Shown here one piece after another: positions 1,426 through 30,963 of a DNA stretch of 32,000 nt. Numbering within the stretch: the first letter of the stretch is position 1; each line of letters opens with the position of its first letter. The stretch comes from Idiomarina loihiensis L2TR (lineage in GTDB: Bacteria; Pseudomonadota; Gammaproteobacteria; Enterobacterales; Alteromonadaceae). Made by a program: the position numbers and the translations under genes. The stretch is taken from assembly GCF_000008465.1 (NCBI RefSeq), contig NC_006512.1:1680001-1712000 (forward strand), read 5' to 3'. The notes beneath the pieces are model-generated. The model ran no database searches. It was not told where the DNA came from and worked only from the letters and a program-made list of their open reading frames with translations.

Positions 1426-1626
1426 AGGAATTAGTTAAAAATAGGTGTCCAGTTTAATGCTTCGGTCTTTTCGGTACCAGTTAATATTTGTAAAACCAGC
1501 CCTTAACAGACTCATTTTATGAGTGTAAATGGCGCTAAAAAATTAAGCTTAACTAAATGCGCTTTTATAATTTCTGCTAAGATGCTTAGCTCCTATGCAA
1601 ATAAAGACGCCATTAAGAGGTAATTA

Positions 1627-2562
1627 ATGAAAGCTGTCATACTCGATGCAGAAACCCTGGGCAAGGGAATTGATCTCTCCGCTATTGAAAAGTCCGTCGA
1701 CGAACTGGTTTTATATGATTCAACAACGACCGAACAGCTTAATGAGCGAATTAACGATGCTGAAATTGTTATCACAAATAAAGTCGTTATTAATGAACAG
1801 GCCCTTGAGTCCGCTGAACAGTTAAAGCTAATTTGCGTGTTAGCCACGGGAATGAACAATATCGACTTAGCTGCAGCAGAAAAGCTGAATATTCCGGTTA
1901 GAAATGTTGAGGCTTACGGTACACAAAGCGTGGTTCAGCATACTTTGATGATGATGCTTTCGCTGGCGACTAAGCAACCCGTTATGCAAAAACGCGTTGC
2001 CGCCGGTGACTGGCAAAGTTCCTCCATGTTCTGCCTGTTAGACCCATCCATTATTCAACTGGCCGGCAAGAAGCTAGTTATTGTTGGTTCTGGTGAGCTC
2101 GGCCAGGAGGTTAAAACTATGGCAGAAGCTTTGGGGATGCACGTTGAGTTCTCAGCACGCCCCGGAAAGAAAGATGACCCGCGTCCATCACTAAATGAGC
2201 TACTACCTTCTGCAGACGTTATCTCTTTTCACTGTCCGTTAACGAATGACACCAAAAATTTGCTTAACGCAGATAATCTCGAACTTTGTAAAAAAGACGC
2301 TCTGATTATTAATAATGCCCGAGGTGGTGTTATCAATGAACAGGATGTAACCGAAGCGCTACGAGCGGGAAAAATTGGCGGTGTTGCCGCTGATGTTTTG
2401 CCTCAGGAACCACCTAAAGATGGCAACCCCTTGTTGGATGCGATGAACGAAGGATTAAACCTGATTGTCACGCCTCACAACGCCTGGACATCACCTGAAG
2501 CGCGGCAGCGTATTGTAGAGCTTACTGCCGAAAATATTCAGAGTACTCAGGGAAAGAACTAA
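1627..2562 (+). CDS. D-isomer-specific 2-hydroxyacid dehydrogenase (glycerate dehydrogenase / hydroxypyruvate reductase-like)
   Basis: 311-aa ORF with an AAGAGG SD upstream of the ATG. It has the Rossmann motif KKLVIVGSGELGQEV (GxGxxG) and the family-typical NNARG and VTPHNAW (catalytic His) segments. Confidence 0.85.
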   Translation: MKAVILDAETLGKGIDLSAIEKSVDELVLYDSTTTEQLNERINDAEIVITNKVVINEQALESAEQLKLICVLATGMNNIDLAAAEKLNIPVRNVEAYGTQSVVQHTLMMMLSLATKQPVMQKRVAAGDWQSSSMFCLLDPSIIQLAGKKLVIVGSGELGQEVKTMAEALGMHVEFSARPGKKDDPRPSLNELLPSADVISFHCPLTNDTKNLLNADNLELCKKDALIINNARGGVINEQDVTEALRAGKIGGVAADVLPQEPPKDGNPLLDAMNEGLNLIVTPHNAWTSPEARQRIVELTAENIQSTQGKN

Positions 2563-2588
2563 AACTTGAGTTAACTTCGAATATTAAT

Positions 2589-2619
2589 GTGTTGGCAGCT
2601 GTTTTCACGCTGCCAACAC
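2589..2619. terminator. Perfect 11-bp inverted repeat between convergent genes (probable bidirectional terminator hairpin)
   Basis: GTGTTGGCAGC (2589-2599), loop tgttttcac, GCTGCCAACAC (2609-2619). It lies between the stop of the dehydrogenase (2562) and the stop of the MORN gene (2648). The flanking ATTAAT arms extend the stem. There is no clean T-tract. Confidence 0.5.
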
Positions 2620-2647
2620 GTATTAATCAAGGTTAATAAGCTTTCGT

Positions 2648-4372: not shown

Positions 4373-6687
4373 TAATTGGCCTCCTGTAAAGATTCAAAAT
4401 CAGGCATAGGGGGCAGTTGGTGAGTCCATTCTTTTGTTACCGGGTCACCTTTAGCAATAAGTTGCTCAACTTTGTCTACTCGCCCACCAATACGTAAAAA
4501 ACCGTCATCGGACACAAATTCACTAAACTCTGAATTTAAGTAGTCGACAGAATAGCCTCCATCGTTCTGCGGCAAGACTGCTAACGCCTTTCCTTTGGCG
4601 TTCAAAAAACGATATTTTCTTAAGAACTCACTCATAGCAACTTCAGCTTGCTGTTCGTCCCAGTCTTCCCCCAGCAAAGATTCAACCGGAATCATCCAGC
4701 TCTTTTCACCTAAGGCAATATCGACTGGCTGCCATTCCGGCTGCCCGTCACAACGAAGCTCTAAGGCTACTTCAGTATCATAAAAAAAACGCTGCACACC
4801 ATCGTCTGTCATTAATTGATAGACCACTTTTTTCGGCATTTTTAAATGCGAAACAACATTACGTCTATTGGGATCAGCGTTTTCTCTCATGACCCGCTTG
4901 TGTTTATTTCCCTTACTTTTAGCCTCGGTATTCAACTCACAAACACCCGCCTGTTCAGGGCTTAGAGTTAAGTACAGCTGAGCTCGGTCAAAACTGGTAG
5001 GCTCTAATTCATCCAATGTCGATGTCGAGAACTCAAGATCCCGGTCATTAACTGAGACTGCCATCTCATCCGACTTGAACAAAGGAACGGTATCAACCGG
5101 GGCAATTGAGGTATCACTTCTAAGCGTTTCTTCATCATAAAAAACAATTTTCTTCTCAGAAGTTTTATTGTCTGTAACACGGTTGAATTTAAGTTCAATT
5201 GTCTCAGGCAATTCGTCCTCAAAAGCTATTCTCAGAGTTACCGCATAGTCGCCTCGTTTGGCAATAGCTAAAGCGCGGCTCTCTGCACTAGATACCCAGT
5301 TAGGTGCCGATGCATCTGTGTCGTAATTTAAAACTGCCCGGCTAACCCCATTTATCTGACTATCGAAATAAGAGTCATTAGTGGCTGTTAATTTCAGTTC
5401 AAACTCTTTGTCCTTTTTAGTGGGAGTCAAAATCGCTTTAGCGCCATGCATTTCTATGCTCGAGCCGTCTTTATCTATTGGAAACTCAACAATTTCATAG
5501 CTTGTTTCATAGCGTTCCAGAGTCGCTTCTATTGATGTCATTTGCTCAAGATCATCAACGACATCTGTCCAGCCCAAAGGGAGTAAATGTATTAACGTTT
5601 CTGATTTTTCGTTACGACTGTCTGTATAGGTGAAAACCCCGTTTTCATGAAGCTTAATATCAAGAGCATCCCCTTTACTATCTTTAGCGATAAGGTCTTT
5701 CACTTTTATCGACATCGAGCCCATACTTTCAAAACTTACCCCGGGATGGCTATATGTCAAAGAAATACGACCGCCGTAAAAATCCATTTTTCCTGAGTCA
5801 TTAGCTAATACTTCTGCATCGGTCGCTTTGTTGTTTGAGTTAAGTTCGCTAAAGTCTGTATTATCGATGGTAAAAGGCTCGTCATAACCTAAATGCTCGA
5901 GGTTCTGACCATACAGCCAGTCTTCAGGGAAAATTGACGTCACCATTCGCATTGAGCCATCAGATACCGCAGCTTCTTCAGGAAGAGGCATATCCATAAT
6001 CATGGTTAAACGCTGAGTCCAGCCAGTGTCACGTTCCAGCACAACGTAGCCGAACACTTTTGCCTCATTATTTTCACCTGAAGCAGATAAGGTCACCGTG
6101 CTGTCAGTAAAGTCTTCAACCGTAAAGGTAATTTCAGGTAAAGGACTTTTGAGTTCTAAAACCTGAGTCGCGCCTTTTTCAACTTTTAAGTCATTAATAA
6201 AACCCGGGCGCCCCAACTCATCATTTAATATTTCCTGCAAAGGGTCTATTCCCTGCTTGCGGAAGTCCTCAGGCTCTTCATGAATAGTAAAGTCCACCAT
6301 TGCACTGGTGTCTTTATCAATATCAACCGTGAACCCGGCATCCATCATTTTCCGAATGCTATCGCCAGAACTTCCACGACCGTCATCTTCAAAGCTCGTG
6401 AAATCACCCTGAGGAAATTCCATCCTCATATACTGGGGTCTCATTCTTATACTGTAGATATCCGGTTTATCGGACACTTCATAGTCCAGTAACATCATAG
6501 TTTTGAGTCTTTCTGAACGGTTGCCGTAATGCTTACTCTCAACCTTGATGTTGGTATCCGAGTACATTTGATACCGTCGCTGCTCACCGTCATCGGGGTT
6601 AAACGATAAGGTCTTTGGAGGGCCGCTTTCAGAACAAGCTACAACAAGAAGAGCTGAAAAAGCCACGAATGATAGACGCCCTAACAT
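4372..6687 (-). CDS. Large lipoprotein, function unknown
   Basis: 771-aa ORF with signal peptide plus lipobox (MLGRLSFVAFSALLVVAC|SES). The stop TAA (4374-4372) shares nt 4372 with the ATG of the downstream MORN gene (TAATG overlap). I recognise no catalytic or family motif. Confidence 0.75.
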   Translation of the reverse strand: MLGRLSFVAFSALLVVACSESGPPKTLSFNPDDGEQRRYQMYSDTNIKVESKHYGNRSERLKTMMLLDYEVSDKPDIYSIRMRPQYMRMEFPQGDFTSFEDDGRGSSGDSIRKMMDAGFTVDIDKDTSAMVDFTIHEEPEDFRKQGIDPLQEILNDELGRPGFINDLKVEKGATQVLELKSPLPEITFTVEDFTDSTVTLSASGENNEAKVFGYVVLERDTGWTQRLTMIMDMPLPEEAAVSDGSMRMVTSIFPEDWLYGQNLEHLGYDEPFTIDNTDFSELNSNNKATDAEVLANDSGKMDFYGGRISLTYSHPGVSFESMGSMSIKVKDLIAKDSKGDALDIKLHENGVFTYTDSRNEKSETLIHLLPLGWTDVVDDLEQMTSIEATLERYETSYEIVEFPIDKDGSSIEMHGAKAILTPTKKDKEFELKLTATNDSYFDSQINGVSRAVLNYDTDASAPNWVSSAESRALAIAKRGDYAVTLRIAFEDELPETIELKFNRVTDNKTSEKKIVFYDEETLRSDTSIAPVDTVPLFKSDEMAVSVNDRDLEFSTSTLDELEPTSFDRAQLYLTLSPEQAGVCELNTEAKSKGNKHKRVMRENADPNRRNVVSHLKMPKKVVYQLMTDDGVQRFFYDTEVALELRCDGQPEWQPVDIALGEKSWMIPVESLLGEDWDEQQAEVAMSEFLRKYRFLNAKGKALAVLPQNDGGYSVDYLNSEFSEFVSDDGFLRIGGRVDKVEQLIAKGDPVTKEWTHQLPPMPDFESLQEAN

Positions 6688-6813
6688 AAGCTTCCTTAAA
6701 ATTTATAAATGAATATGAATAAAGTCATATGATAAGCAGTATTAAATTTTGGCTCAATACAGTCCTCAGGCCTTAACAGATTCTTTACACTGATAACTCA
6801 ATTAGGTGATTAC

Positions 6814-7164
6814 TTAATATGACCAGTCGCCCTGTTCTTCCACCAATACAGTCTCATTATTTTGAATAACCTGAAGCAAACCTGATTCAAAAACTTTATA
6901 AGTCGTATTTCCGTTTTTGAATTGATATCCCTGAAAACGGCAAGGAGTCACTCCGTCAGCACAAAGTGAATGCAGTGTTTTGCCTTTAAGTTCTATGCGG
7001 TTACCTGATATTTTCGAGACTCCGACATAACTCACGTTATCGCATGTGACAGAGCCTTCCTGACAGTGACGCTCAATTTCAACAATATAGTGTTCTGTTG
7101 TCAGCGTATCTCCAAATGCTGCACCAGATAATATGAATACACTTAATAACATAAATTTTTTCAT
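6814..7164 (-). CDS. Small exported protein with four Cys, function unknown
   Basis: 116-aa ORF with signal peptide MKKFMLLSVFILSGAAFG. Four Cys fall in two C-x6-C pairs (CQEGSVTC and CADGVTPC). The ATG (7164) directly abuts the benE stop TAG (7167-7165). Confidence 0.65.
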   Translation of the reverse strand: MKKFMLLSVFILSGAAFGDTLTTEHYIVEIERHCQEGSVTCDNVSYVGVSKISGNRIELKGKTLHSLCADGVTPCRFQGYQFKNGNTTYKVFESGLLQVIQNNETVLVEEQGDWSY

Positions 7165-8211
7165 CTACTTTTCCCTGCTTACATTACTCAGAAAATAATA
7201 ACCGGCCAAACCAATTAATAAGCCCCAGAATGAACTGTTAATACCTAAGAAATTGATGCCGGATGCTGTAACAATAAAAGCCATAACCGAAGCCAGCAAA
7301 GTCTCTTCATGACTAAATGCCTGGCGGAAATTAACAGCAAGCACCGGTAACAAAGCTAAGCCAGCCAGAGCCGATGTCGCTTCGGTTGGTAAAGCCAGAA
7401 ACAACCCAACAATTAATGACCCGGCAAGCCCGGCAATGATATAGAAGACGCCGGCCGCCATAGCTGCTTTGTAACGCTGACTACGATCGGTATCGGCATC
7501 TGCGGTTTGACAAATAGCGGCGGTAATTGCGGCCAGGTTTATTGCGAAAGCCCCAAGCGGAGCCATAATGACACCGAATAATCCGGTCACCCGTAACAGC
7601 GGCGACAGTGGCACCGCATAGCCATTACTGCGCAGCATCATAATGCCCGGCAGGTTCTGGGAAACCATAGTGACAACATATAAAGGAATCCCAACTCCAA
7701 CCAGTAAAGAGAAGTTAAACTCAGGCCATACCCAGACCCAATCGGGGGCGGAGACAATCAACTGGCTTGCATCAAACTGCTTTGTCAGCACCGGCAAGCC
7801 CACTGCAGCCAGCAACACCCAGAAAAAAACCAGCTTAGGTGTCAGCTTCCGCATCACAAAATAAACAATGACTAAAGTTGCAGTAATTAAAGGCTGATTA
7901 TCAAAGGCCGGAACTAAAGCCAACACAAACTTAAGTAAAATGCCGGCCAATATAGCAGCCGCTATTTCGACCGGAATGTATTTTAATAGCCGGTCAGAAA
8001 TACCGCTTAGGCCACTAAGTAAAATTAAACCCGATGAAAAAATGAAAATGCCGACCGCCTCGGCGACTGAAACACCGGCAAGGGCTATAATGAGCAGGGC
8101 AACACCCGGTGTAGACCATGCCGTCAGTATCGGGGCTTTGTACCGCCACGAGAGAAGAATACTGCTTAGCCCCATAGCTAAACCTAAGGCGAGCAACCAG
8201 GAACTCTGCAA
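7165..8211 (-). CDS. benE: Benzoate/H+ symporter BenE-family transporter (main body; the N-terminal helix is in another frame, see next feature)
   Basis: The 348-aa polytopic membrane ORF is co-linear with E. coli BenE as I recall it (ALGLAMG...P(I/V)LTAWSTPG(A/V)ALL..., VTMxSQNxPG, AAITAAICQ, FWGL). The track start at 8211 is a TTG with no SD. The true N-terminus is upstream in a different frame. Confidence 0.8.
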   Translation of the reverse strand: MQSSWLLALGLAMGLSSILLSWRYKAPILTAWSTPGVALLIIALAGVSVAEAVGIFIFSSGLILLSGLSGISDRLLKYIPVEIAAAILAGILLKFVLALVPAFDNQPLITATLVIVYFVMRKLTPKLVFFWVLLAAVGLPVLTKQFDASQLIVSAPDWVWVWPEFNFSLLVGVGIPLYVVTMVSQNLPGIMMLRSNGYAVPLSPLLRVTGLFGVIMAPLGAFAINLAAITAAICQTADADTDRSQRYKAAMAAGVFYIIAGLAGSLIVGLFLALPTEATSALAGLALLPVLAVNFRQAFSHEETLLASVMAFIVTASGINFLGINSSFWGLLIGLAGYYFLSNVSREK

Positions 8212-8324
8212 CTCAACCGAGCCATTGAGGCTTTTACGGCTTCCAGAATTAAAACAACCGCACTGCTGTAACCAACAAAAACCGCTGTCGCCCCAGCCAT
8301 AATATGAGAAATGGAAAACCTCAT
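8184..8324 (-). pseudogene. benE: benE N-terminal fragment, out of frame with the body of the gene
   Basis: ATG at 8324 translates to MRFSISHIMAGATAVFVGYSSAVVLILEAVKAS..., which matches the BenE N-terminal helix (..LAGFLAVLIGYASSAAII.. in E. coli). It then hits TAG at 8186-8184. The GY-to-AMG distance is 98 nt, against 99 nt (33 codons) in E. coli BenE, so one base is missing. The T4 run at 8232-8235 is the likely site. Confidence 0.6.
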
Positions 8325-8345
8325 GGCACTTCCTTTGTGGTCTGT

Positions 8346-20917: not shown

Positions 20918-21323
20918 TACTTATTGCTCCTCAAGCGAGTTGACCTTTGCAGTATAAAAACGCTTAGCACACCTAATGAATAGTCTTTCACGTTAGCTGC
21001 TAATTCTGCATTGTTCCAGAAACAAGAATCGTATCTTTCTCAAACTAACCGAATAGTGGCCGGCAGTTTTGATGCTCACTTACCTCCGCAATATTGCTTA
21101 CTTTATTATTGTGTTGTGTATTTAACTCGTTTAAGGTCAATTACATAATAAAAACGAAAATTAGATATTGTGCACTCGTTAGACTAGAAATGAGCATGCT
21201 CGAATTGCTTTGCCTGCTTTCGGCGGGCTTTTTGAAAAATAAATTGAGTTATTAAAGGGTTCGAAGAAAAAAGAAGAAATTTAATGAAAGTCGAAGTGCG
21301 CATGCACAATATATAAATGTTAA

Positions 21324-21698
21324 ATGCCTATGAAAGCACCATGTCAATGCAAAGAATCTCCAGAGCTTGTCGACTTGAGCAAAGAGGGAAAGGAGCTCGT
21401 AGCGGAATTCTCAGAGTTAGATGTCGGCAACTGGGTTTACTTGATGAAATGCCCTACCTGCGGGCAGTTGTGGCGCGTGGATGAGTGGGACAAATACCAG
21501 CCGCAGTATGCCGTTAAGCTCCCTACTTCCGAGAATTGGCAAGCTTTTGAAGCAATTCCACTTATCAAGAAAAAGATAGTAGAAAACAGAGGTGGTATTT
21601 CGGAGCAGTTGTGCATGTGGCGCAATTGCAATGAAAAGCAGGTAAATGGTTCGGCTTTTTGCGTAGATCATCTGTACGAGACTGGTGCGCGAAGCTGA
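21324..21698 (+). CDS. Cassette 1: Cys-rich zinc-ribbon protein, unknown function
   Basis: 124-aa ORF (or 122 aa from the ATG at 21330). Cys pairs are CQC...CPTC (zinc-ribbon-like), and there is a C-terminal C-x4-C-x10-C-x2-H. No SD is visible. Confidence 0.6.
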   Translation: MPMKAPCQCKESPELVDLSKEGKELVAEFSELDVGNWVYLMKCPTCGQLWRVDEWDKYQPQYAVKLPTSENWQAFEAIPLIKKKIVENRGGISEQLCMWRNCNEKQVNGSAFCVDHLYETGARS

Positions 21699-21702
21699 AA
21701 GC

Positions 21703-21789
21703 ATTTAACCAATCAATTAAGTTCGTTCCCGGCCTGGCGGCCGTCCACCGGACACCCCTGACGGGCCGCCGCTTATTTCAGCGTTGTGC
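21703..21789 (+). repeat. attC site 1
   Basis: R'' is ATTTAAC (21703-09) and R' is GTTGTGC (21783-89). The inner boxes are AATTAAG and CTTATTT, with 5- and 4-nt spacers. The central GC-rich stem pairs GGCGGCCGTC with GACGGGCCGCC and has one extrahelical G. Confidence 0.8.
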
Positions 21790-21813
21790 TCAATATAACC
21801 AAAGGGGCGTTTA

Positions 21814-22599
21814 ATGTTTTCTGATTTGTTTGCTTCTAGTAGAAGTGTCTTTAAAGAACGTGTATCCAGCCCACTCTATGGGGCAATTGTTATTTCATGG
21901 TTATTATGGAACTGGCAAATTCCTTACTTAACACTGTTTGTAAGTGAGGAAAATCTTGATAGTGACAAAATATCCTGGATTGCTGAAAATCATAGCAACT
22001 GGGTGTTGTTAGTACTTTACCCTGCGCTCTCGGCATTCGCCCTTGTTCTTGTTATGCCATTCTTTACAAATGGTGCCTATTGGGTAAGTCTTCGATTCCG
22101 AAAATGGCGAATCGACTCACAACAATCCATAGAAAAGAAGACGCTCCTTACACTTGAACAGTCAATCGCTCTTCGGGAGGAAGTCCTGGCCCAGGAAGAG
22201 CGAATTGAAAAAATGCTCGAGGCAAAAAATCGAGAAATTAAGCAATTGAGCACTCAAATCGCAGATTTAGAGGATAGGTTGAAGTCAGAGGATGAATCAG
22301 AAGAAGCTAGACAGACTCGGACAGAAAAGCACAGCCCGCATTATGTAGATGATGATGAAAATGCCAAAGAACTGGCAAAGAAGATTTTTAATAGCCATAA
22401 GGCTAATAAAACCTTTGAGAAAGCAATAGAGTTTATTCAAGGTGGATATTCAGGCCTGCTTCAAGAGAATGAAGTCGACTCAAGGTCATTAGCGTTTCTT
22501 GAGGCTAATAACGTGATTGAAAACACTGGTGAAGGGCAGTACCGCTTTTCGGATTTTGGAAAGAAGGTTCTCCGAGTGTATACGGATTTTGAAATTTGA
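21814..22599 (+). CDS. Cassette 2: membrane-anchored coiled-coil protein, unknown function
   Basis: 261-aa ORF with an AAGGGG SD. It has two TM helices (YGAIVISWLLWNW and VLLVLYPALSAFALVLVMPFF) and a charged heptad-like segment (LEQSIALREEVLAQEERIEKMLEAKNREIKQLSTQIADLEDRLK). The C-terminal ~80-aa globular part has a winged-helix-like appearance. Confidence 0.7.
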   Translation: MFSDLFASSRSVFKERVSSPLYGAIVISWLLWNWQIPYLTLFVSEENLDSDKISWIAENHSNWVLLVLYPALSAFALVLVMPFFTNGAYWVSLRFRKWRIDSQQSIEKKTLLTLEQSIALREEVLAQEERIEKMLEAKNREIKQLSTQIADLEDRLKSEDESEEARQTRTEKHSPHYVDDDENAKELAKKIFNSHKANKTFEKAIEFIQGGYSGLLQENEVDSRSLAFLEANNVIENTGEGQYRFSDFGKKVLRVYTDFEI

Positions 22600-22604
22600 A
22601 AATG

Positions 22605-22696
22605 GCACAACAAAGGGCTCAACCGGACGTCGGAACAGGTTTGGCGGCAAAGCCTGGTAAACTCAGTTGCGGCGCCGGTTAGCCTAGACGTTACCT
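22605..22696 (+). repeat. attC site 2
   Basis: The layout is canonical. R'' is GCACAAC (22605-11), followed by a 4-5-nt spacer and L'' GGGCTCAACC (contains GCTCAAC at 22617-23). L' is GGTTAGCC (22677-84), followed by the 5-nt spacer TAGAC and R' GTTACCT (22690-96). Confidence 0.85.
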
Positions 22697-22709
22697 TTAT
22701 TGAGGAGGC

Positions 22710-23288
22710 ATGGTGGAAGCTAATTATTGGCAGTACTATCTTTCGTTTGAGGAAGATGTTGATCGCCTTTTTCGCTACATCGAACCCGCGGAGTACAACT
22801 TTACCGTTTACTCGGTAGAACTAACTCGGTTGTACTTGGCAATATGTTCCGAAATCGACGTAATACTAAAAGCATACTGCAAGCTCCTCGATGAGGGCTC
22901 TAAGCCGTCAAATATTAACGAATATGCGGAAATGGTCGTTTCATCGAAGAAAGGGTTGTGTTCTGAGACTGTCAATTTTCAGAGATTCGGAGTTTCAATG
23001 ACGCCATTTTCAGAGTGGAAGCAGTCGTCCACGCCAACTTGGTGGAAAAAGCATAATGGTGTAAAGCACAACCGGAACGTCAACTTTAAGGACGCTAATC
23101 TGGGTAACGTTCTCAACGCGTTTGCAGCATTGTACTTGCTAAACCTTTACTACTACCAAGAACGACGCTGTATCGAGCTGCAAGAACAAGGGTTCTCCGA
23201 GTCGCTCGAGGAAACGGCAGCTTCACTGAAGTCGCGTTTAGATGTACTTAGAATAGATAGTGTTTGGCTAAGCTTTATGGAAAGGTAA
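22710..23288 (+). CDS. Cassette 3: 192-aa helical protein with a W-W-K-K-H-N-G-V-K-H-N-R patch, unknown function
   Basis: The ORF has GAGGAGG immediately upstream, and its stop TAA is embedded in the attC inverse core (GGTAAC). There is no TM segment and no family assignment. Confidence 0.7.
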   Translation: MVEANYWQYYLSFEEDVDRLFRYIEPAEYNFTVYSVELTRLYLAICSEIDVILKAYCKLLDEGSKPSNINEYAEMVVSSKKGLCSETVNFQRFGVSMTPFSEWKQSSTPTWWKKHNGVKHNRNVNFKDANLGNVLNAFAALYLLNLYYYQERRCIELQEQGFSESLEETAASLKSRLDVLRIDSVWLSFMER

Positions 23289-23366
23289 CAAAGCCAATCA
23301 CGGCGACGCCCGCTACATTTCGGCTTCGTCTTTATTTCGTAGCCGCGCATGTTGGCGGCGTTATAC
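23283..23366 (+). repeat. attC site 3
   Basis: R'' is AGGTAAC (23283-89), followed by spacer AAAGC and L'' CCAATCA... L' is ...CATGTTGG, followed by spacer CGGC and R' GTTATAC (23360-66). An internal CGCTAC/GTAGCCG stem is present. Confidence 0.8.
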
Positions 23367-23381
23367 ACAAAGGATTAAGCA

Positions 23382-24407
23382 ATGGAGTCAATTCCACCAT
23401 ACGAAGGAAAACCTACTGTTTACCTTGATCAGAATGTTTTAGATTTCTTCACGAAACAAGGATTGGGTGAGTTTGGGCAAATGCTTTTAGAAGATTATCA
23501 AGTAGTTTACTCAGATGAAACACTCAAGGAAATTCGGCGTTCTAAAGGTTTTGAAGAAAACTTTCTCAACGTACTCAAAGATCTGAAAGCTTACCATTTA
23601 AAGCTAATTGTTGAGCAGCCAAACTTCACGATCACCGACAACGCCACAATATGTAAACGTGATCCTTATGATATCTATAAGCAGTACTGTGAAAGTTGTG
23701 ACGATGGTCTCGACATAGAATATGCAATGCAACAATCATTGTTCAAGTTTTCTGGTGGAAGAAAGGGGGAAAGTCTTAACGATATTCATAACGAACAGGT
23801 CGCCGCATTCTCCGAGCTAATGGATTCATTAATGGATATCTCTGACGAGTTACCTGAAGAGATACAAAAACAATTGCAAGTCTATGGTGAGGAGATGACT
23901 TCTCAATACAAAGCAACATTAGCAAAAACTGAAAATATGATGCTTGAGAGTATTGAAGATGATAGAAATTGGGATGGTATTAAAGACTTCCGGTTAGCGC
24001 TCGGAATTGGTCCCATGCAACTTAATAATATTGATCCGCCGGATGTACTTGTAAAAATTTGGGATAAACTAAGAGCGCTCCCAGCTTATAGTCAAGCAAA
24101 CATGGATATAGAAGATTTTTTTCAATTAAAAAAGCATCCGATTTACCCAGAGCAACCTTACTTCAAGCACCAAAAAGTGACGGTTATTTATAATATGCTA
24201 AATACTTTGGGATATTATCCAGACTCAAAAGTACACAAAGAAAGACGGTTCATTGCTGCTGTAAGTGATAACAGTCACGCATCCATAGCCTCATTTTGTA
24301 ATTTCCTCGTGTCCAACGATGAATACTTTATTAAAAAGGTTAATGCCGCATATGAATATCTTGAAGTGCCAACAATAGCAAATCAGGTGGTTTTCAATTA
24401 TGCATAA
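23382..24407 (+). CDS. Cassette 4: 341-aa protein with split PIN-like nuclease signature
   Basis: AAGGA SD 7 nt upstream of the ATG. The N-terminus reads PTVYLDQNVLDFF, followed by VVYSDETLKEI (first Asp and Glu of a PIN fold). The C-terminus reads AAVSDNSHASIASFCNFLVSNDEYFIKK, matching the PIN pattern D-x3-a-x2-A-x6-LV(T/S)-x-D-x2-F with 17-residue D-to-D spacing. About 240 aa of unassigned sequence lies between them. Confidence 0.7.
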   Translation: MESIPPYEGKPTVYLDQNVLDFFTKQGLGEFGQMLLEDYQVVYSDETLKEIRRSKGFEENFLNVLKDLKAYHLKLIVEQPNFTITDNATICKRDPYDIYKQYCESCDDGLDIEYAMQQSLFKFSGGRKGESLNDIHNEQVAAFSELMDSLMDISDELPEEIQKQLQVYGEEMTSQYKATLAKTENMMLESIEDDRNWDGIKDFRLALGIGPMQLNNIDPPDVLVKIWDKLRALPAYSQANMDIEDFFQLKKHPIYPEQPYFKHQKVTVIYNMLNTLGYYPDSKVHKERRFIAAVSDNSHASIASFCNFLVSNDEYFIKKVNAAYEYLEVPTIANQVVFNYA

Positions 24408-24461
24408 CAAAGCGTTTAAGCAAAGACGCAGCCAGCTGCGTCACTTATCTTTGCGTTACAA
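24402..24461 (+). repeat. attC site 4 (short; 3' boundary less certain)
   Basis: R'' is GCATAAC (24402-08) and overlaps the stop codon. The stem pairs GCAAAGACGCAG with CTGCGTCACTTATCTTTGC, with bulged bases. The R' candidate is GTTACAA (24455-61). An alternative pairing of the two CAAAG copies makes the box assignment ambiguous. Confidence 0.6.
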
Positions 24462-24480
24462 ACAACCGGAGTCTTAAGCT

Positions 24481-24861
24481 ATGAATCTGAACCAGGTCAC
24501 CTTGCCCGTCACCAATATGGAAAAGGCTACGGAGTTCTATCGCAAGATGGGGTTCCTTCAAATTGTAGATACTCCACACTACGCCAGATTTGAATGCCCG
24601 GAGGGAACGTCGACGTTCTCCCTTTCATTGGATGATTCTGGGGGTTCAAATAAGAGCGTGATTTATTTTGAACACCAAGAGCTTGACGACCTTGTTGCCG
24701 AGTTGAAGTCCAAAGGACTTGAATTTGATCAAGAGCCAACGGATATGCGGTACTTATGGCGCGAGGCCATACTCCATGATCCCTCCGGCAACAAAATCAA
24801 ACTGTACTGGGCAGGTGAGAATCGTCTAAATCCGCCGTGGCGAGTTGAGCTCGGTGCATAA
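24481..24861 (+). CDS. Cassette 5: VOC-family (glyoxalase / bleomycin-resistance / dioxygenase fold) protein
   Basis: 126-aa ORF with a GGAG SD. It shows the beta-alpha-beta-beta-beta module pattern (VTLPVTNMEKATEFYRKMGF ... ILHDPSGNKIKLY) typical of the VOC superfamily. Confidence 0.8.
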   Translation: MNLNQVTLPVTNMEKATEFYRKMGFLQIVDTPHYARFECPEGTSTFSLSLDDSGGSNKSVIYFEHQELDDLVAELKSKGLEFDQEPTDMRYLWREAILHDPSGNKIKLYWAGENRLNPPWRVELGA

Positions 24862-24932
24862 CAAACCAATGTTGGCTGCCTCGGAAGCGTGGTACACGCA
24901 CAAATAATAACTCTGCCCGACAGTAGTTAAAA
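24856..24932 (+). repeat. attC site 5 (distal, degenerate; 3' boundary uncertain)
   Basis: R'' is GCATAAC (24856-62), followed by spacer AAACC and L'' AATGTTGGC. The central hairpin is GCGTG-gta-CACGC. L' is GCCCGACA and the R' candidate is GTTAAAA (24926-32). Confidence 0.5.
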
Positions 24933-25017
24933 CTCTGAAGGCCGTAATTAATTGGTATTCAAGCCCTGAGTTTCAGGTTGGTGACATTCGTTCAGGACAA
25001 ATTGTGGTGAAGACTCA

Positions 25018-27942
25018 TCAAAACTGCCCGCTTACCCCAAGCAAGAACGTTCGTCCGTTAGAAGTTGTGTTGTAAGCGCGGTCACTGGAATCACTGTAAA
25101 GCTCTTCGCGGACGTTGGTCAGGTTCAGGGCTTCTAGGGTTAACTTAAAGTTATCAGACAGTTGGTAATGAGCGGCTGCGTCAACGTAGGTGGTGTCGTG
25201 GTAACCGGATTCATCCTGGTCGGTATTCCCCGCCTGAACCGACAAAATGTAGTCACTGCGGTAGGCCGATGAGATACGCGCTGACCAGTCTTCAGCTTCA
25301 TAATAAAAGGTCAGGTTATAGCTTTGGTTTGAGAGTCCGGCAAAGGTCTTTACCTGATTCTCACCGGTGCCCTGCACGTCGCGGTACAGCGTATCGCCGT
25401 CTGCCCAGGTGTAGTTGGCAATCATGCCGAGTCGGTTGAAGGGCTCAGGCAGAAAATCAAAATCCCGCGAGAACGCAAATTCAGCGCCCTGAATAACAAA
25501 AGAATCGGAGTTTTCCGGTGTGGTGACAATAAATAAGTCGTCTACAGACTCCCCTTCCTGCAGCAAGGCTTCGGGAAGCCCTAAACTGCCGTAACGTAAC
25601 AGCTCAGTTTTTTCGACAATGAAGTTATCAATATTTTTATGAAACAGCGCTAAGGATATAAACCCTTGCTTATTAAAATACCATTCAATAGCAGTGTCTA
25701 TGTTTATCGATTCGAACGGCTGCAGAAAGGGGTTCCCTAATCCTATTGAACCAATGTCGCCGTCATCGCGCGAGGCCTGCGACACATTCGCAGAAAAGGA
25801 CAATTTATCTATAGAAGGCCGGGTAATATTTTTGCTCGCTCCAAAGCGCCATAAAACATTATCGGTAATATCCAGAACCATATTCAGGCTGGGTAACCAA
25901 TCGGAATAGTCTCTCTCTATTTCCGTGTAAATGCCTTTTGAGATACCAGCAGAAGACAGAGTTGTCTCGAAAAAACGCGCACCGGTACTCAAAAGCAGTG
26001 TTTTACCAAACATTTGCGTATCAAAATCGAAAAGAAAATAGGCAGCGTCCGTTTCCTCCTCCACCGAATAATTAGACGTATCAATAATAGACTCTTCACC
26101 CAATCTATAGCCCGCTAAACCGTAGTGTTGCTGAAGCTGAGCTAAGTCACCCTGCAACCAGTTGAAGTCGGGGTGTTGAGTATAAACATCCGTATACTCA
26201 GGTGGTAAAAACAAATTGCCTTCGTTTTTGGGCGTCAGGCCGTTGGTCGGAAAGTCTCCCTGTACTCGTTCATGCCCGTCATTTGACAGTTTCTTATGAC
26301 TGACACCCAGCTTCAGAGAGTTTTGAGGCGTTAATCGGTAGTCGAAATCAGCTTTAAACGTGAGCATATCCGAAGAAATCTCGTTTTCCTGAAAGTAGAG
26401 GTCTTTCACCCGAAACGCTGTTGGGTTAGTAGTATCAAATTCAGGTGAACGACTAAGGCCATAAAAGCGATCCTTCCTAAAGTCGGTAATAATATCCACG
26501 CCGTCGGTAATAATGTTGACCTTGTTCAGCTTAGGCTGCCGGTAGTCAGACGAATTAACTCCAAGGAGAAAATTAAACGAAGCATCGGGGCTTGTTTGCC
26601 AAAAGGACTTAAAGGTTATTTGTTTAAATTCCGATTCATTATAGTCCAGCCGGGTTTCAGCTCGCCATGTCGCGTCCTTATATTCGGCATAAACCACTTC
26701 TTTTTCACTGTCATTATTCACCCATTCCAGAGCTTTAACCTGACGGTTATTTTTTACCGCAATATGGTGTTCATCTAAATCGTTGGTCAGTCGGTTCAAT
26801 AAAATATCAACTGTGCTGATAAAATTCTCACTCGGCTGATATTGCAGCGAAGCGGTAATTCCCAGCCGAGTCTGGTTATTATTCCAGAGCGAATAACGGT
26901 GCCCCCGGGGAAACCAGAACTCCCCGTTAGCTAATTTCTCTGACAGAGCAGGATTATCCGGCCCAACATAAGTTTTATTTTCTTTTCGCCAGCGCGTGGT
27001 GTTGGTTCCATATTCAGTTGTGTGCCGTTCACTGTAGGCCATTGATACCAGCGCACCAAAGCTGCCCCAGGTATTCGCTATCATTCCGGCCACACGGGGG
27101 TCGTAATGTTGGCTGTTGGAATTGTAGGCCTGTCGGTAGGAAAAAGCTGACGTAAAATCCTTATAGTCCGCGGGCTTTGGTGTAAATAACTCTACCGTGC
27201 CGCCAATGCCGCCCTCTTCCATACGCGCAGAGTAAGACTTTTTCACATCAATTCGATTAAACAGTTCAGAAGCAAAAATATTAAAGTCGAACGCCCGACT
27301 ACGGCTAACTGAACCGCGGGCATCCATTGGTGATGATGTTATTCCCAACGCTTCCATGCCATTGATATGCACACGGGTGAAGTCCGGTCCCAGCCCGCGC
27401 AGCGATATTTGACGCCCTTCACCGGCTTCCCGGGTAATCGAAATACCGGGTACGCGCTGCAATGAGTCAGCTAAGTTCAAGTCCGGAAAATCGGCAATAT
27501 CTTCGGCCAGTATCGAATCCTGTGACACCATTGCCAGACGCTTATATTCCCGCGCTTTAAATAAAGAGTCACGAAATCCGGTAACAGTAATTTCTTCAAT
27601 AACTTGGTTAACTGGTTTGCTTTCTGCTGCAGGCTGCGGAGACTTAATTATATTGTCCTGACAGGTTTCAACCAACCAGCCGGAGGCGACATTACTCGCG
27701 CATAAGTTGCTATTTTTCAGCAGCTCGTCCAGCAACTCCTGAGCCGTAAACGAGCCTTTTAGTGCCTCGGTGTGTTCATTAGTGACTAAAGCAGGGTCGA
27801 ACAATATGGTCTGGTCGGTTGTGCGGGAAAACTGAGTTAATGCGTCTTTTAAAGGTTGCGCCGCAAAAGTCACATCGAACTTTGTGCCTTCTGCGGCCAG
27901 GGTTAAACTGGAAATAAATAGTAGCCAGCTAAATCTACGCAT
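25018..27942 (-). CDS. TonB-dependent receptor with N-terminal STN signalling domain (FecA-type transducer)
   Basis: 974-aa ORF with a signal peptide. An ~80-aa STN-like extension (FDVTFAAQPLKDALTQFSRTTDQTILFDPALV) is followed by a plug (LADSLQRVPGISITREAGEGRQISLRGLGPDFTRVHINGME), a long barrel, and a terminal ...LLGVSGQF. Confidence 0.85.
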   Translation of the reverse strand: MRRFSWLLFISSLTLAAEGTKFDVTFAAQPLKDALTQFSRTTDQTILFDPALVTNEHTEALKGSFTAQELLDELLKNSNLCASNVASGWLVETCQDNIIKSPQPAAESKPVNQVIEEITVTGFRDSLFKAREYKRLAMVSQDSILAEDIADFPDLNLADSLQRVPGISITREAGEGRQISLRGLGPDFTRVHINGMEALGITSSPMDARGSVSRSRAFDFNIFASELFNRIDVKKSYSARMEEGGIGGTVELFTPKPADYKDFTSAFSYRQAYNSNSQHYDPRVAGMIANTWGSFGALVSMAYSERHTTEYGTNTTRWRKENKTYVGPDNPALSEKLANGEFWFPRGHRYSLWNNNQTRLGITASLQYQPSENFISTVDILLNRLTNDLDEHHIAVKNNRQVKALEWVNNDSEKEVVYAEYKDATWRAETRLDYNESEFKQITFKSFWQTSPDASFNFLLGVNSSDYRQPKLNKVNIITDGVDIITDFRKDRFYGLSRSPEFDTTNPTAFRVKDLYFQENEISSDMLTFKADFDYRLTPQNSLKLGVSHKKLSNDGHERVQGDFPTNGLTPKNEGNLFLPPEYTDVYTQHPDFNWLQGDLAQLQQHYGLAGYRLGEESIIDTSNYSVEEETDAAYFLFDFDTQMFGKTLLLSTGARFFETTLSSAGISKGIYTEIERDYSDWLPSLNMVLDITDNVLWRFGASKNITRPSIDKLSFSANVSQASRDDGDIGSIGLGNPFLQPFESINIDTAIEWYFNKQGFISLALFHKNIDNFIVEKTELLRYGSLGLPEALLQEGESVDDLFIVTTPENSDSFVIQGAEFAFSRDFDFLPEPFNRLGMIANYTWADGDTLYRDVQGTGENQVKTFAGLSNQSYNLTFYYEAEDWSARISSAYRSDYILSVQAGNTDQDESGYHDTTYVDAAAHYQLSDNFKLTLEALNLTNVREELYSDSSDRAYNTTSNGRTFLLGVSGQF

Positions 27943-27958
27943 TTTCAGATGACATAAT

Positions 27959-28918
27959 TCATGGTGTTAAACGAATCTGTTGAGGCAAATACTCAACGTT
28001 TAACGCATACATCTGACTCAACAGCTTTAAAGTTTGTTCCGTGTCATTCAGGCGAAAGCGCCCTGCCACCTCCCGTGAGCCTAAGTTCGGATCAGCCAGT
28101 ACAATAGGCGTTGAACTGTGGCGGTTAAGTCTCTCAATCAGATAAGTGAGGTTCTCATTGCTAATTTCTATCCAGCCCGAACGCCAGTCTATCAGGTTGT
28201 TCACATCAACCTTCTTCACCACGCCAAAACGCCCACGGGACAAGCGCATCTTCTCTCCGGCTTTTAATAACACCGGGAAGCTTTCCTGCTCGGCCTGAAC
28301 CTCAACAATACCTTCGTAAACGGTGACATCAATCTGGTCCGTGCCGCGGTCGATATTAAATTCCGTGCCGACCGCCGTAACACTGGCATCACCAACGCTA
28401 ACCACAAAGGGACGTTTCTTGTCCTTAGCAACGGAAAAATACGCCTGACCTGACTCTATGCGCAGGTCTCTCTGCTGCTCGGAGTAATTCACCATAACTT
28501 CACTTGAAAGCTGCAGTTGCAACGCACTGCCGTCGGATAACTGATGCGTATTTTCCGTTGGCGACTGCGCAGTGAACACTGTCGGCTGCGGGGTTTCACT
28601 AAAGCGACCGGGCAACATGACGGTAATAGCAACAACCAACGCACAGGCTGTAGCTAAGCCCATTCCCCATTGAAATGCTTTTTTCACCGGGCGTTTTTGT
28701 CGCTTTTTCAGTTGTTCGAAAGACTGCTCCAGCGCCGGGTCCTGCCAGGTAGCCAACATGGACTCAAATACCTGCTGATGTTGAACATCGGCCTCTAACC
28801 ACTTAATAAAGCGCTTTCGGCAAAGGGTATTGAGTTCACCGTCAGAAAGCCGATCCATCCATTCCGCGGCTTCAGTGTAAATACTGTCTTGTGAGGTATT
28901 ATTGACTGTCTCTTGCAT
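27959..28918 (-). CDS. fecR: FecR-family anti-sigma factor / transmembrane sensor
   Basis: 319-aa ORF. It has an N-terminal anti-sigma segment (AAEWMDRL...), a single TM (GMGLATACALVVAITVML), and a periplasmic FecR-like domain (GQAYFSVAKDKKRPFVV..G...V.A.GTEFNI). The ATG (28918) directly abuts the sigma gene stop (TAG, 28921-28919). Confidence 0.85.
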   Translation of the reverse strand: MQETVNNTSQDSIYTEAAEWMDRLSDGELNTLCRKRFIKWLEADVQHQQVFESMLATWQDPALEQSFEQLKKRQKRPVKKAFQWGMGLATACALVVAITVMLPGRFSETPQPTVFTAQSPTENTHQLSDGSALQLQLSSEVMVNYSEQQRDLRIESGQAYFSVAKDKKRPFVVSVGDASVTAVGTEFNIDRGTDQIDVTVYEGIVEVQAEQESFPVLLKAGEKMRLSRGRFGVVKKVDVNNLIDWRSGWIEISNENLTYLIERLNRHSSTPIVLADPNLGSREVAGRFRLNDTEQTLKLLSQMYALNVEYLPQQIRLTP

Positions 28919-29407
28919 CTATTTTGTCTTACTGTCTATGTAACGCTGAATGTCGGCCAGTGCCCGGGTTATGTGCCGGGTAACGGTTTCCATACTAATT
29001 CCCAGTTGTTCCGCAATGGCTTTGCGGCTCTCACCATGCAGCCGCCTCAGCTCAAACGCCCGCCGCCGTTGCTCCGGCATGTTTTCGAGCGCCTGAGAAA
29101 TCAGCTCAATACGTTGCGCTTCTTCCAGCAAATATTCCGGGTTTGCTTTTGGTGAATCAAGGTTATCGATATCGTCATCGCAGTCTACAGGACGTGCCGT
29201 CAGCAGATTACGAGCCACCCGAATTGCATACCCTATTGGATTGTTGATGGTGCTTTTCCGGGATTGCTCCAGTACCCGCGCCACAGACTCCTGATAAATG
29301 TCGGCAGCCTCTTCACTACACCGCGTCCGGCCAGAGAGGTAACGCCGCAACTGGGCGTTATTGGATAAACAATCGTAGAGTTTACTGTTGTTTGTTTTAT
29401 TAGACAT
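28919..29407 (-). CDS. fecI: ECF (sigma-70 family, FecI-like) RNA polymerase sigma factor
   Basis: I place the start at ATG 29407 (MSNKTNNSKLYD..., 162 aa) rather than the track start at 29560, which would overlap the upstream PHP gene. Region 2 is ..AADIYQESVARVLE.. Region 4 is an HTH reading RRAFELRRLHGESRKAIAEQLGISMETVTRHITRAL. Confidence 0.8.
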   Translation of the reverse strand: MSNKTNNSKLYDCLSNNAQLRRYLSGRTRCSEEAADIYQESVARVLEQSRKSTINNPIGYAIRVARNLLTARPVDCDDDIDNLDSPKANPEYLLEEAQRIELISQALENMPEQRRRAFELRRLHGESRKAIAEQLGISMETVTRHITRALADIQRYIDSKTK

Positions 29408-29505
29408 ATCAGCTGCTGGTGCACCCTGGCGTTTTGCTGAGATAGCCAAGGATACACCGTCATTATGACAGTTCTGTGGATCTCGTTCGCGTCGGGGCAC
29501 CGAAA

Positions 29506-30963
29506 TCATTTTGCTTTGTCGATATAAACAGGGTTGCTGTAAAACCATAAGTCGGTCCACGGGTTCTCGCCTTTAACATCGGGTTGTGGCTCCAGCTCCT
29601 TGGCACGGTTAGTTCCCCGAACTCGTATATAACCCGCTGATTCTGATGCCGGTAATTCAAACGTCATCACCTGATAATTGCCCTGACGACTCCAGTCACT
29701 TGGATAAAAACGCTTAATAACTTCAGTCGTCGGGTTGACATTGTTTGCGGCAAACTCCTTGTTGCCGTGCACTTCACCATAAATAAGATCAACGCGTCCC
29801 ACCGACGGGTTATCATCGTGATAATTCAGCGTGTCCGGGTCTAAAAAAGCAATAGTGACCGTGGCGGGTTTATCGGCGGCAACAAGGGTTTCACCAATGC
29901 TAGCTGTTTTTTCCGACTGCGACAGGGAAACATAAAGCTCGGTAATAAGATCTCCCGTAGTAACAAACACCTTGCCACCGCGCAAACCGTCTAAAACACT
30001 GTCATAGTCCTGCTGAGCGTAAACATAAGTCTTAGCGTATTCACCCGGCCAAAAGTCCGTACGACCTTCGGTGTAATGTGCGTGGCTATCAGAAACCGCC
30101 GTAATGCTCCAGCGACGTCCTTCACCTAAAAAGCTGTCCCACACGCCACCGACTATTGCCGTCATCTGGTCAGTACCTCCGTGTGTCGGGTACCCATAGT
30201 ATTCCGCCCGCGTTCCCTCAGGGTCATTCGAGCCATCTGGATTAATTGTCGCTGCCTGATGCCCGGGAATACCGGTCATGCCTGTAATAACATCCGGAGC
30301 GGTGTCCTGCCAGAGACGCATTTTTTCAGGCGTCACTTTTTTGAACTGACCCAATTCATCAGCCTGACGAGCCGGATGATTCACCGAAAGCACCGGACGC
30401 GGACTCATCGCCTGCATAGCATTCAGCGCTTTTAACATGAAAGATTCGGTATCCCGCTCAAATTCATTAGGAAATGCTTCACGTCGGTTAAACTGGCTTT
30501 CTATGGTGTAGAGCTGCTGCGCTTCTTCATCGGTATGTGGAATAATTAAGGTGCTGTGGCGTGCATTGGGGGTATCAAATTCCATTCCGTAAAACTGCAA
30601 AATACCCGGAACTGCTTTGCGGGACGCAACCAATTCAGGATAAGCCTGCTCCAAATTAACCCGGCTATGCTTCGGACCACCGTGGTCAGTGGTTACCATC
30701 CATTGCAGACCATGCTGTTTCGCCATTTGTGCATTCAGCGCGGTAAAATAATGGGCGTCACCAAATAAAATGGCCGTAGGCGGTTGCGTACTGGTGTCCC
30801 ACTTTGCACTAAACTTGCCATGAATATGGTGGTCACCCGCCAACCATTGCTTATTACCCGGCGGCTTAAAATCGTGATTATCGGATGTTAAAACCGTCTT
30901 TGCACAGGCTGATAACAGCGTCAGCGCTATGGCGGTACTTATAACGTTTTTTACTCGTGACAT
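29506..30963 (-). CDS. Lipoprotein PHP-family (CehA/McbA-like) metal-dependent phosphoesterase
   Basis: I place the start at ATG 30963 (MSRVKNVISTAIALTLLSAC.., with a lipobox; 485 aa). The track start at 31116 would overlap the upstream receptor gene and its terminator. PHP metal-ligand motifs occur in order: GDHHIHG, VTTDHGG, LIIPH, VNHPAR, PGHQ, VSDSHAH. Confidence 0.75.
   Translation of the reverse strand: MSRVKNVISTAIALTLLSACAKTVLTSDNHDFKPPGNKQWLAGDHHIHGKFSAKWDTSTQPPTAILFGDAHYFTALNAQMAKQHGLQWMVTTDHGGPKHSRVNLEQAYPELVASRKAVPGILQFYGMEFDTPNARHSTLIIPHTDEEAQQLYTIESQFNRREAFPNEFERDTESFMLKALNAMQAMSPRPVLSVNHPARQADELGQFKKVTPEKMRLWQDTAPDVITGMTGIPGHQAATINPDGSNDPEGTRAEYYGYPTHGGTDQMTAIVGGVWDSFLGEGRRWSITAVSDSHAHYTEGRTDFWPGEYAKTYVYAQQDYDSVLDGLRGGKVFVTTGDLITELYVSLSQSEKTASIGETLVAADKPATVTIAFLDPDTLNYHDDNPSVGRVDLIYGEVHGNKEFAANNVNPTTEVIKRFYPSDWSRQGNYQVMTFELPASESAGYIRVRGTNRAKELEPQPDVKGENPWTDLWFYSNPVYIDKAK

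Follow-up and report, generated by a model that had tools for sequence, protein, structure and literature searches.

We analyzed a stretch of 32,000 nucleotides (nt) of Idiomarina loihiensis L2TR (contig NC_006512.1, positions 1,680,001 to 1,712,000 of the forward strand; hereafter the window, in whose numbering positions are given), which carries at 23382-24407, on the + strand, an open reading frame (ORF) encoding a split PIN-like protein of 341 amino acids (aa). The ORF, taken from the ORF listing together with its stop codon, starts with an ATG, and a Shine-Dalgarno-like AAGGA motif read from the sequence lies 7 nt 5' of it (23370-23374, +); two small antisense ORFs (23604-23735 and 23776-23925) overlap the gene. 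The product matches a "hypothetical protein" of I. loihiensis at 100% identity, and the gene is the one ORF of an inferred integron gene cassette of 1,095 bp (23361-24455, +). Most probably the protein is a nuclease of the PIN type into which a new helical domain of 195 residues is inserted. Its three parts are the N-terminal half of a PIN-like core (residues 1-91; 23382-23654, +), an inserted all-helical domain (residues 92-286; 23655-24239, +) and the C-terminal half of the core (residues 287-341; 24240-24404, +).

Searches of Pfam, NCBIfam, PADLOC and the PDB sequences with the single 341-aa protein gave no meaningful match, and the same was true when these libraries were searched with 46 and 121 family members, with family profiles and with the ten most divergent members; matches to apolipoprotein, 14-3-3 and designed helical bundles were discarded as composition artefacts of the helical insert. 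No Pfam family of the PIN clan (PIN, PIN_3, PIN_12, NYN and others) matched the window protein at E <= 10, and none was found among the 25 most frequent of the 75 families matched in Pfam (E <= 0.1) by the 121 members. A word index returned 185 homologues, which all lack a Pfam domain and with few exceptions have a length of about 340 aa; a profile search that was exhaustive over 1.84 billion cluster representatives recovered 835 clusters (50% identity) at E <= 1e-3, with 196 at E <= 1e-30. The cluster members are almost all 320-370 aa long and match the family profile end to end; from their number, near-uniform length and end-to-end matches we conclude that this is a large uncharacterised family of fixed architecture.

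According to Matelska et al. 2017 (PMC5499597), members of the PIN domain-like superfamily share a Rossmannoid core of alpha/beta/alpha type that contains five parallel strands. An AlphaFold2 (AF2) model of the full protein, built on a 46-sequence alignment, was confident (predicted local distance difference test, pLDDT, 91.1; predicted template modeling score, pTM, 0.87). It places beta1 at residues 12-15, then two helices, beta2 (40-43), two further helices (45-53 and 58-67), beta3 (71-78) and a hairpin strand (83-91), followed by an all-helical stretch (95-286) and, in the C-terminal part, by a helix (287-303), beta4 (308-311), a helix (314-327) and beta5 (332-335). As modeled, the elements follow one another as in a PIN domain (Rossmannoid, five strands), except that the beta3-to-beta4 crossover holds one large insertion; this is a position at which helical inserts are known in some VapC-like structures (Matelska et al. 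2017, PMC5499597). An earlier first-pass annotation, made by reading the sequence, had proposed such a PIN fold assembled from the two termini, and the predicted order of elements agrees with it.

Both motifs on which that annotation relied are present, TVYLDQNVL...YSDETLKEI at residues 12-51 and VSDNSHASIASFCNFLVSNDEYF at residues 294-316, and their conservation goes beyond chance, since D16, E50, D296 and D313 make up four of the six invariant columns and are kept in remote homologues. The alignment used for conservation held 121 sequences reaching ~25% identity, and its invariant columns were six only (D16, E50, G277, D296, H299 and D313); these residues persist, as do N18, S44, N274, D281 and K319, even in the most distant members found, whose sources are Psychrobacter, a spirochaete, a plasmid of Shewanella and a P2-like phage. 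Within the N-terminal half, which also carries N18 and S44, D16 (codon 23427-23429, +) follows beta1 and E50 (codon 23529-23531, +) lies on the helix after beta2. Within the C-terminal half, D296 (codon 24267-24269, +) shares with H299 the helix before beta4, D313 (codon 24318-24320, +) follows beta4, and K319 sits on the next helix. In the superfamily the active site is made up of conserved acidic residues that sit where the core strands have their C-terminal ends, and D16, E50, D296 and D313 occupy such places. The first Asp and the Glu of the fold had both been attributed to the N-terminus; the Asp is indeed D16, and the catalytic Glu is probably E50 and not E46, since E46 is conserved only among close relatives, whereas E50 is invariant, aligns with E42 of VapC and occupies the VapC-class site of the catalytic Glu on the helix after beta2. 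We regard the predicted PIN-like core as rather likely to be catalytically competent.

Foldseek comparison of the full model with the PDB gave weak E-values (0.4-2) over 60-90 aligned columns per match, an alignment length to be expected if a local aligner is unable to bridge the 195-residue insert. All matches with appreciable probability were PIN domains, namely Utp24/Fcf1 (0.89), Pyrococcus PIN proteins (0.84), the PIN domain of EST1A/SMG6, and VapC4. For profile comparison we used as PIN reference the Shigella VapC sequence, validated against databases (full-length match to 3TND_A, E = 1.7e-85; Pfam PIN, E = 7.6e-21). In hhalign the family core with its insert excised aligned to the VapC profile with P = 4.7e-4, and the N-terminal half alone with P = 1.8e-4 (probability 49%), reversed-sequence decoys giving P = 0.2-0.5; the register sets YLD16QN on MLD7TN and SxxTLxE50 on SxxTLME42. 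The C-terminal half alone was non-significant against VapC (P = 0.76). When the alignment was extended at low stringency, with low confidence, D296 fell on D98 and S311-N312-D313 on T114-N115-N116, where the T-x-D motif canonically sits; the C-terminal PIN signature described in the first-pass annotation has the expected register relative to VapC, and is not significant by itself. An hmmsearch of the PDB with the spliced-core profile (insert excised) returned nothing, PIN domains included, and a fold search of the BFVD viral library was likewise empty. Direct-coupling analysis for contacts between the N- and C-terminal parts was dominated by gap artefacts, the core columns being indistinguishable from a row-shuffled null at an effective depth of ~147. 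Taken together, the topology, the invariance, the statistics of the N-terminal half and the identity of the Foldseek matches make the assignment to the PIN-like fold very likely.

The insert, delimited by its own AF2 model and by the size kept in the family, is 195 aa long (family median 194, range 178-212). It had been put at ~240 aa, an overcount that arose because alpha3, alpha4 and beta3 of the core were counted as insert. When residues 92-286 were modeled alone, with the full-length homologues as alignment, AF2 again gave an all-helical structure (pLDDT 95.4), within which residues 132-188 run antiparallel as a long helical hairpin. Of the positions in the insert, K122, G125-G126 and, directly N-terminal to the D296 helix, N274, G277, Y278 and D281 are conserved. 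The description of the insert as helical and acidic stands for this protein (net charge -13, pI 4.7); family-wide its acidity is usual only, the median charge being -8 and the range -42 to +16. Foldseek found no relative of the insert model in the PDB (best E = 0.7, probability <= 0.25, root-mean-square deviation ~18 A). We also considered, and discarded, a helix-hairpin-helix/H3TH reading of GIGPxxLNNI (residues 208-217), as the element is not kept by remote members and the insert is without structural match. A role of this domain as sensor or autoinhibitor is proposed only tentatively.

An attC site is an imperfect palindrome bounded by an R'' box (RYYYAAC) and an R' box (GTTRRRY). Here attC-like sites were called by constrained folding and by a fixed-criterion scan, without a calibrated attC covariance model, and such sites lie between five co-oriented ORFs at 21324-24861. 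The first (21703-21789) reads ATTTAAC...GTTGTGC and the second (22605-22696) GCACAAC...GTTACCT. The third, of 84 nt (23283-23366, +; AGGTAAC...GTTATAC), belongs to the preceding cassette and forms the 5' boundary of the one under study; its constrained fold has -12.2 kcal/mol and 13 outer pairs, with z between -1.6 and -2.0. The fourth, of 60 nt (24402-24461, +; GCATAAC...GTTACAA; z about -1.5), is the site of the cassette itself, and its R'' box and the last two codons of the gene, the stop included, overlap (GCA-TAA-C). Both the third and the fourth were also recovered by the scan. The R''/R' boxes and constrained folds set the ends of the cassette at the crossover between G and TTATAC in the upstream R' box and at the G of its own R' box, GTTACAA. 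Hairpin stability is decisive alone for the second site only (z = -3.6), the sites flanking the gene having z of -1.5 to -2.0. Over the whole window the scan gave 13 + strand matches, six of them in the 3.8-kb array where ~1.6 were expected; these six cover all ORF junctions, and five begin in an intergenic gap. The GC content of the cassette is 37.5%, against 44-48% in the flanks, and promoter-like sites were no more frequent than in shuffled sequences. The ORFs tested across the 32-kb window included no tyrosine recombinase or integron integrase, and hence we classify the array as CALIN type (an attC cluster without integrase). The independent integron cassette of the first-pass annotation is therefore upheld as a one-ORF unit between attC-like sites, with the correction that its array is without an integrase in 32 kb.

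The array is flanked by a metallo-beta-lactamase-fold protein on the left and a TonB-dependent receptor on the right; the latter forms, with a FecR-like anti-sigma factor and an extracytoplasmic function (ECF) sigma factor, a regulatory cluster of the iron-uptake type (25018-29560, - strand). The metallo-beta-lactamase-fold gene is separated from the first cassette ORF by a gap of 400 bp, and in it, just 5' of that ORF, lies a terminator-like GC hairpin followed by a T-run (21212-21228). The first cassette (21324-21698) encodes a Cys-rich protein of 124 aa that has no Pfam match and whose CxC, CPxCG and C...C...H motifs recall a zinc ribbon. The product of the second (21814-22599), of 261 aa, is hydrophobic in its N-terminal segment and charged and coiled-coil-like in its middle, and gave a weak winged-helix match (SSO1393-like_WHD, E = 0.009). 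The product of the fifth (24481-24861) has the glyoxalase/bleomycin-resistance/dioxygenase fold (PF00903, E = 3.5e-14), and 3' of this cassette, at 24857-24996, a GCATAAC R''-like box without convincing R' box is probably the degenerate end of the array. Cassette GC content spans 37% to 48% across the array, which suggests cassettes of differing origins.

A distribution scan that took one genome per species yielded 36 loci (designated L with a number, as are further contexts below). The hosts belong to the Gammaproteobacteria, Desulfobacterales, Geobacteraceae, Chlorobium, Verrucomicrobia, Lentisphaeria, Alphaproteobacteria, Spirochaetes and Bacteroidota, a patchy spread over at least six phyla. 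Two copies, L006 798-1649 and L032 6244-6936 (Shewanella surugensis and a metagenome-assembled genome of Alteromonadaceae), are split into 2-3 ORFs and are probably pseudogenes. At about 15 loci (among them L001, L002, L009, L011, L013-L018, L020 and L034) a GCATAAC...GTTRRRY palindrome begins on the stop codon as in I. loihiensis; these are mostly closer relatives, so the family is frequently, not always, cassette-borne. At the head of long co-oriented arrays that contain a member, L045 and L047 (1203-1454, - strand) carry an 83-aa Phage_int_SAM_4 fragment which may be the remnant of an integron integrase.

The first-pass annotation had further described the gene as standing alone, without cognate antitoxin, and this is borne out. 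All-against-all BLAST of the neighbouring ORFs of 37 loci revealed no neighbour family common to the loci besides the gene itself, from which we conclude that there is no conserved antitoxin or partner; an adjacent, co-oriented VapB-like antitoxin is accordingly absent as a shared neighbour from these loci, and the I. loihiensis cassette holds a single ORF. A regular-expression search for a classical VapC among the neighbour ORFs, made to obtain a local PIN reference, was negative.

As to a defence module, which had likewise been proposed, no PADLOC model matched the family; outside integrons its members often have defence genes as neighbours. On the conjugative Shewanella plasmid pSA70-2 the member lies directly 3' of an AAA_13 ATPase and a ThsB TIR protein (PADLOC candidate PDC-S06, E = 1e-173, and ThsB TIR, E = 2e-122, respectively). 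At L030 there are two member copies, each with a KAP-family NTPase upstream, of which the one tested in PADLOC matched PifA (E = 5e-51). Other neighbours are a type I methyltransferase (L035), a GajB-like UvrD helicase with a PD-(D/E)XK nuclease (L008), a PrimPol/PbeA-like protein (L024) and, at one further locus, SLFN_AlbA_2. In Morganella morganii (L040 5386-8044) the member lies 62 nt 3' of a 517-aa SIR2_2 protein and adjoins an integrase fragment; in Marinobacter (L043 568-8038) its array includes two ThsB_TIR genes, and in Idiomarina piscisalsi an AbiH gene adjoins it, with PycTM nearby. At least one recognised defence gene was present in roughly half of the annotated contexts, the others having housekeeping neighbours only (MetH, CysS, Tex, ThiC).

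Some further arrangements were observed at these loci. The NTPases of L030 are part of a tandem duplication (942-8325) of a unit made of a KAP-family P-loop NTPase and a family member, the first NTPase being the PifA match, and in this lineage the family may form a two-gene system with the KAP NTPase. As a general rule, an obligate two-gene system with a KAP NTPase, ThsB or SIR2 was rejected: local pairings exist, and no partner recurs. A gene matching Pfam 8xMP overlaps the start of the Marinobacter member by 8 nt (L043 6289-7008), and the I. piscisalsi array also holds an 8xMP gene (L048 2102-2800). Thoeris-type parts recur beside members, in L038 (5221-6969; Shewanella plasmid, with ThsB directly upstream), L043 and L040, which could be due to defence islands bringing them together by chance or to a functional connection.

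The most informative context is that of a homologue from a P2-like phage, with 27% identity over 94% coverage and all catalytic residues kept. In the P2-like phage records it lies between gp03 and the genome end, gp03 being the replication protein gpA (Phage_GPA, E = 7e-124), and in the E. coli M10 prophage, where the homologue has the accession WP_033548893, the order is gpA, the homologue as sole gene, the portal gene gpQ and the terminase. The homologue is present in 4 of 5,426 complete E. coli genomes. The cos-proximal locus between gpA and gpQ, occupied by old and tin in P2, is a hotspot that holds anti-phage systems of diverse kinds (Rousset et al. 2022, PMC9122126). A 2026 study reported that 19% of P2-like phages carry only genes of unknown function at the defence locus, and that 6 of 8 randomly chosen unknown loci of the P4 hotspot were protective when tested (PMC13586616). 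By analogy with such precedents, and judging from the genomic contexts, we consider it somewhat more probable than not that the family serves in defence.

We therefore read the gene as encoding a stand-alone endonuclease of the VapC PIN class that is carried as a single-gene mobile module and acts as a one-protein anti-phage system, a reading to which we assign a probability of about 0.55. Of this, the ORF and its family, the pattern of conservation, the topology as predicted, the absence of a conserved partner and the mobile and defence-linked settings are shown; catalytic activity, its substrate, inhibition of the enzyme by its own insert and a phenotype in defence are inferred. D16, E50, D296 and D313 would bind Mg2+ or Mn2+, assisted by N18, S44, H299 and possibly D281, and the metal-bound active site would cleave RNA or phage nucleic acid. 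Until infection the helical insert would keep the enzyme inactive, or else provide recognition of substrate or trigger, and the outcome would be abortive infection or exclusion brought about by one protein. Such control by the insert would account for the dispensability of an antitoxin. The module spreads horizontally, here as an integron cassette and elsewhere as cargo of defence islands, of a conjugative plasmid and of the P2-like prophage hotspot. A more specific proposal, which we put forward only as a doubtful possibility, is that these proteins form an unrecognised one-protein class of anti-phage systems in which the built-in helical domain replaces a trans-acting antitoxin, caps the active site and senses a phage-derived trigger; contained in one gene, such a system would be small enough to travel as one integron cassette or to occupy a P2 hotspot by itself. 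Regarding the first-pass annotation, its readings of the fold, of the lone gene and of the cassette hold with the corrections given above, and its interpretation as a whole is partly supported.

Toxin-antitoxin cassettes stabilise chromosomal integron arrays, and the protein might accordingly be an addiction toxin that stabilises its array or mobile element and whose antitoxin is hidden, either as an antisense or cis RNA or in the insert itself. A PIN-like core of the VapC class, the location in a cassette array and on mobile elements, and a widespread yet patchy family with some pseudogenes, as expected of selfish modules, all suit such a toxin. However, no protein antitoxin is conserved over the 37 loci, nor would one fit into the cassette, while the position as sole gene in the gpA-gpQ hotspot of P2-like prophages and the ThsB, AbiH, PifA-like and SIR2 neighbours suit defence better; we consider this explanation unlikely, and addiction and defence are in any case compatible with each other.

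It is improbable as well that the protein is a nucleic-acid-processing enzyme of the mobile element or of the cell, acting for example as a structure-specific nuclease on replication or recombination intermediates, in RNA maturation or in competing with plasmids or further mobile elements, with the insert as arch or clamp for the substrate. FEN, XPG and XRN nucleases do combine split PIN-like cores with helical insertions (PMC5499597), the hairpin at residues 132-188 could serve as an arch, and several loci have no recognisable defence neighbour. Nevertheless, the Glu on the helix after beta2 is VapC-like and not FEN-like, an H3TH or helix-hairpin-helix module finds no support (GIGP is not conserved and the insert has no PDB match), an acidic insert is ill-suited to bind nucleic acid, and the sporadic, horizontally transferred distribution speaks against a housekeeping role. 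Finally, that the PIN assignment is wrong or the domain catalytically dead, the protein being a Rossmann-like or scaffold binder of a ligand or partner with convergent motifs, is very improbable: the whole core stays below significance in every sequence and profile method, the Foldseek E-values and the C-terminal half are as weak as given above and N-C coevolution went undetected, but the four acidic residues do not vary and stand at exactly those places in the topology by which a PIN active site is defined, all credible Foldseek matches are PIN domains, and the N-terminal half aligns to VapC ~1,000-fold better than decoys do, in catalytic register.

If the one-protein anti-phage reading is correct, it would add a multi-phylum family of at least 835 clusters (50% identity), unrecognised by Pfam, NCBIfam and PADLOC, to the anti-phage repertoire. 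It would also be a clean case in nature of a PIN toxin that is rendered safe not by an antitoxin but by a domain of new fold within the same polypeptide, which bears on the interconversion of toxin-antitoxin modules and single-gene abortive-infection systems, and it would support the recent view of integron arrays, including integrase-less environmental ones, as stores of defence genes. The homologue of E. coli P2-like prophages (~27% identical, sole cargo of the hotspot) offers an easy test system.

Among known systems, the core resembles that of the VapC-like PIN ribonucleases (PF01850; Shigella VapC, 3TND). Shared features are the order of core strands and helices, the first Asp after beta1 within hLDxN, the Glu on the helix after beta2, the Asp on the helix before beta4, the (S/T)-x-D after beta4, and an N-terminal half that is detectably similar in profile-profile comparison. 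VapC is, however, a compact toxin of ~130 aa, whereas the present protein has 341 aa (320-370 aa in the family), with a 195-aa helical domain in the beta3-beta4 crossover, without VapB or other conserved neighbour and without Pfam PIN match, and with H299, G277, D281 and N274 as additional conserved residues.

A split PIN-like core with a large helical insertion is also found in the FEN/XPG/XRN nucleases (PMC5499597), which have in common with our family a core interrupted by a large helical insert and a domain built from two distant segments. The family differs from them in having no H2TH/H3TH module and no beta2 Asp, in its VapC-like Glu and in an acidic insert structurally unlike the FEN arches. 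With respect to the proposed logic, Shedu is comparable: it is an immune nuclease consisting of one protein, whose accessory domain regulates it (10.1101/2023.08.10.552793), which would correspond to a constitutive single-polypeptide nuclease kept inactive by its own domain without antitoxin, although Shedu has a PD-(D/E)xK fold and not a PIN-like one.

Two further candidates were rejected. The B subunits of Tragantia are Deva-like membrane proteins, paired with a ThsB homologue in one cassette (Kieffer et al., 10.1101/2024.07.02.601719); our model shows a PIN-like core with a helical domain, and the cassette is without a second ORF. An obligate pairing with ThsB of the Thoeris type was discarded as well, since ThsB/TIR occurs near a member in 2 of ~45 contexts and SIR2_2 in 1, with no ThsB/TIR or SIR2 gene in the window or in the P2 hotspot.

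Cosus (Brc24), a single gene with a PIN_12 domain carried in an integron cassette, blocks T7, an effect that the substitutions T12A, D14A and D96A weaken (Kieffer et al., 10.1101/2024.07.02.601719). It shares with the gene described here the format of one PIN-type ORF as an integron cassette, with homologues in arrays of marine Gammaproteobacteria and isolated copies without attC; it differs in being recognised by PIN_12, in its compact spacing (D14...D96) and in lacking a large insert. That the family is Cosus itself was rejected, as D6, T12, D14, E42 and D96 cannot be mapped onto D16, S44, E50 and D296 at any offset and no PIN_12 match was found, the two being set apart by the positions of the mutated residues and by the PIN_12 model, not by direct sequence alignment. 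By analogy, Cosus is the nearest functional precedent. The components of the system, that is a PIN nuclease, an integron cassette and single-gene defence, are of known kinds, and it is their combination that is undescribed in the libraries searched: a conserved, structurally unmatched domain of 195 aa within a PIN core, in a widespread family.

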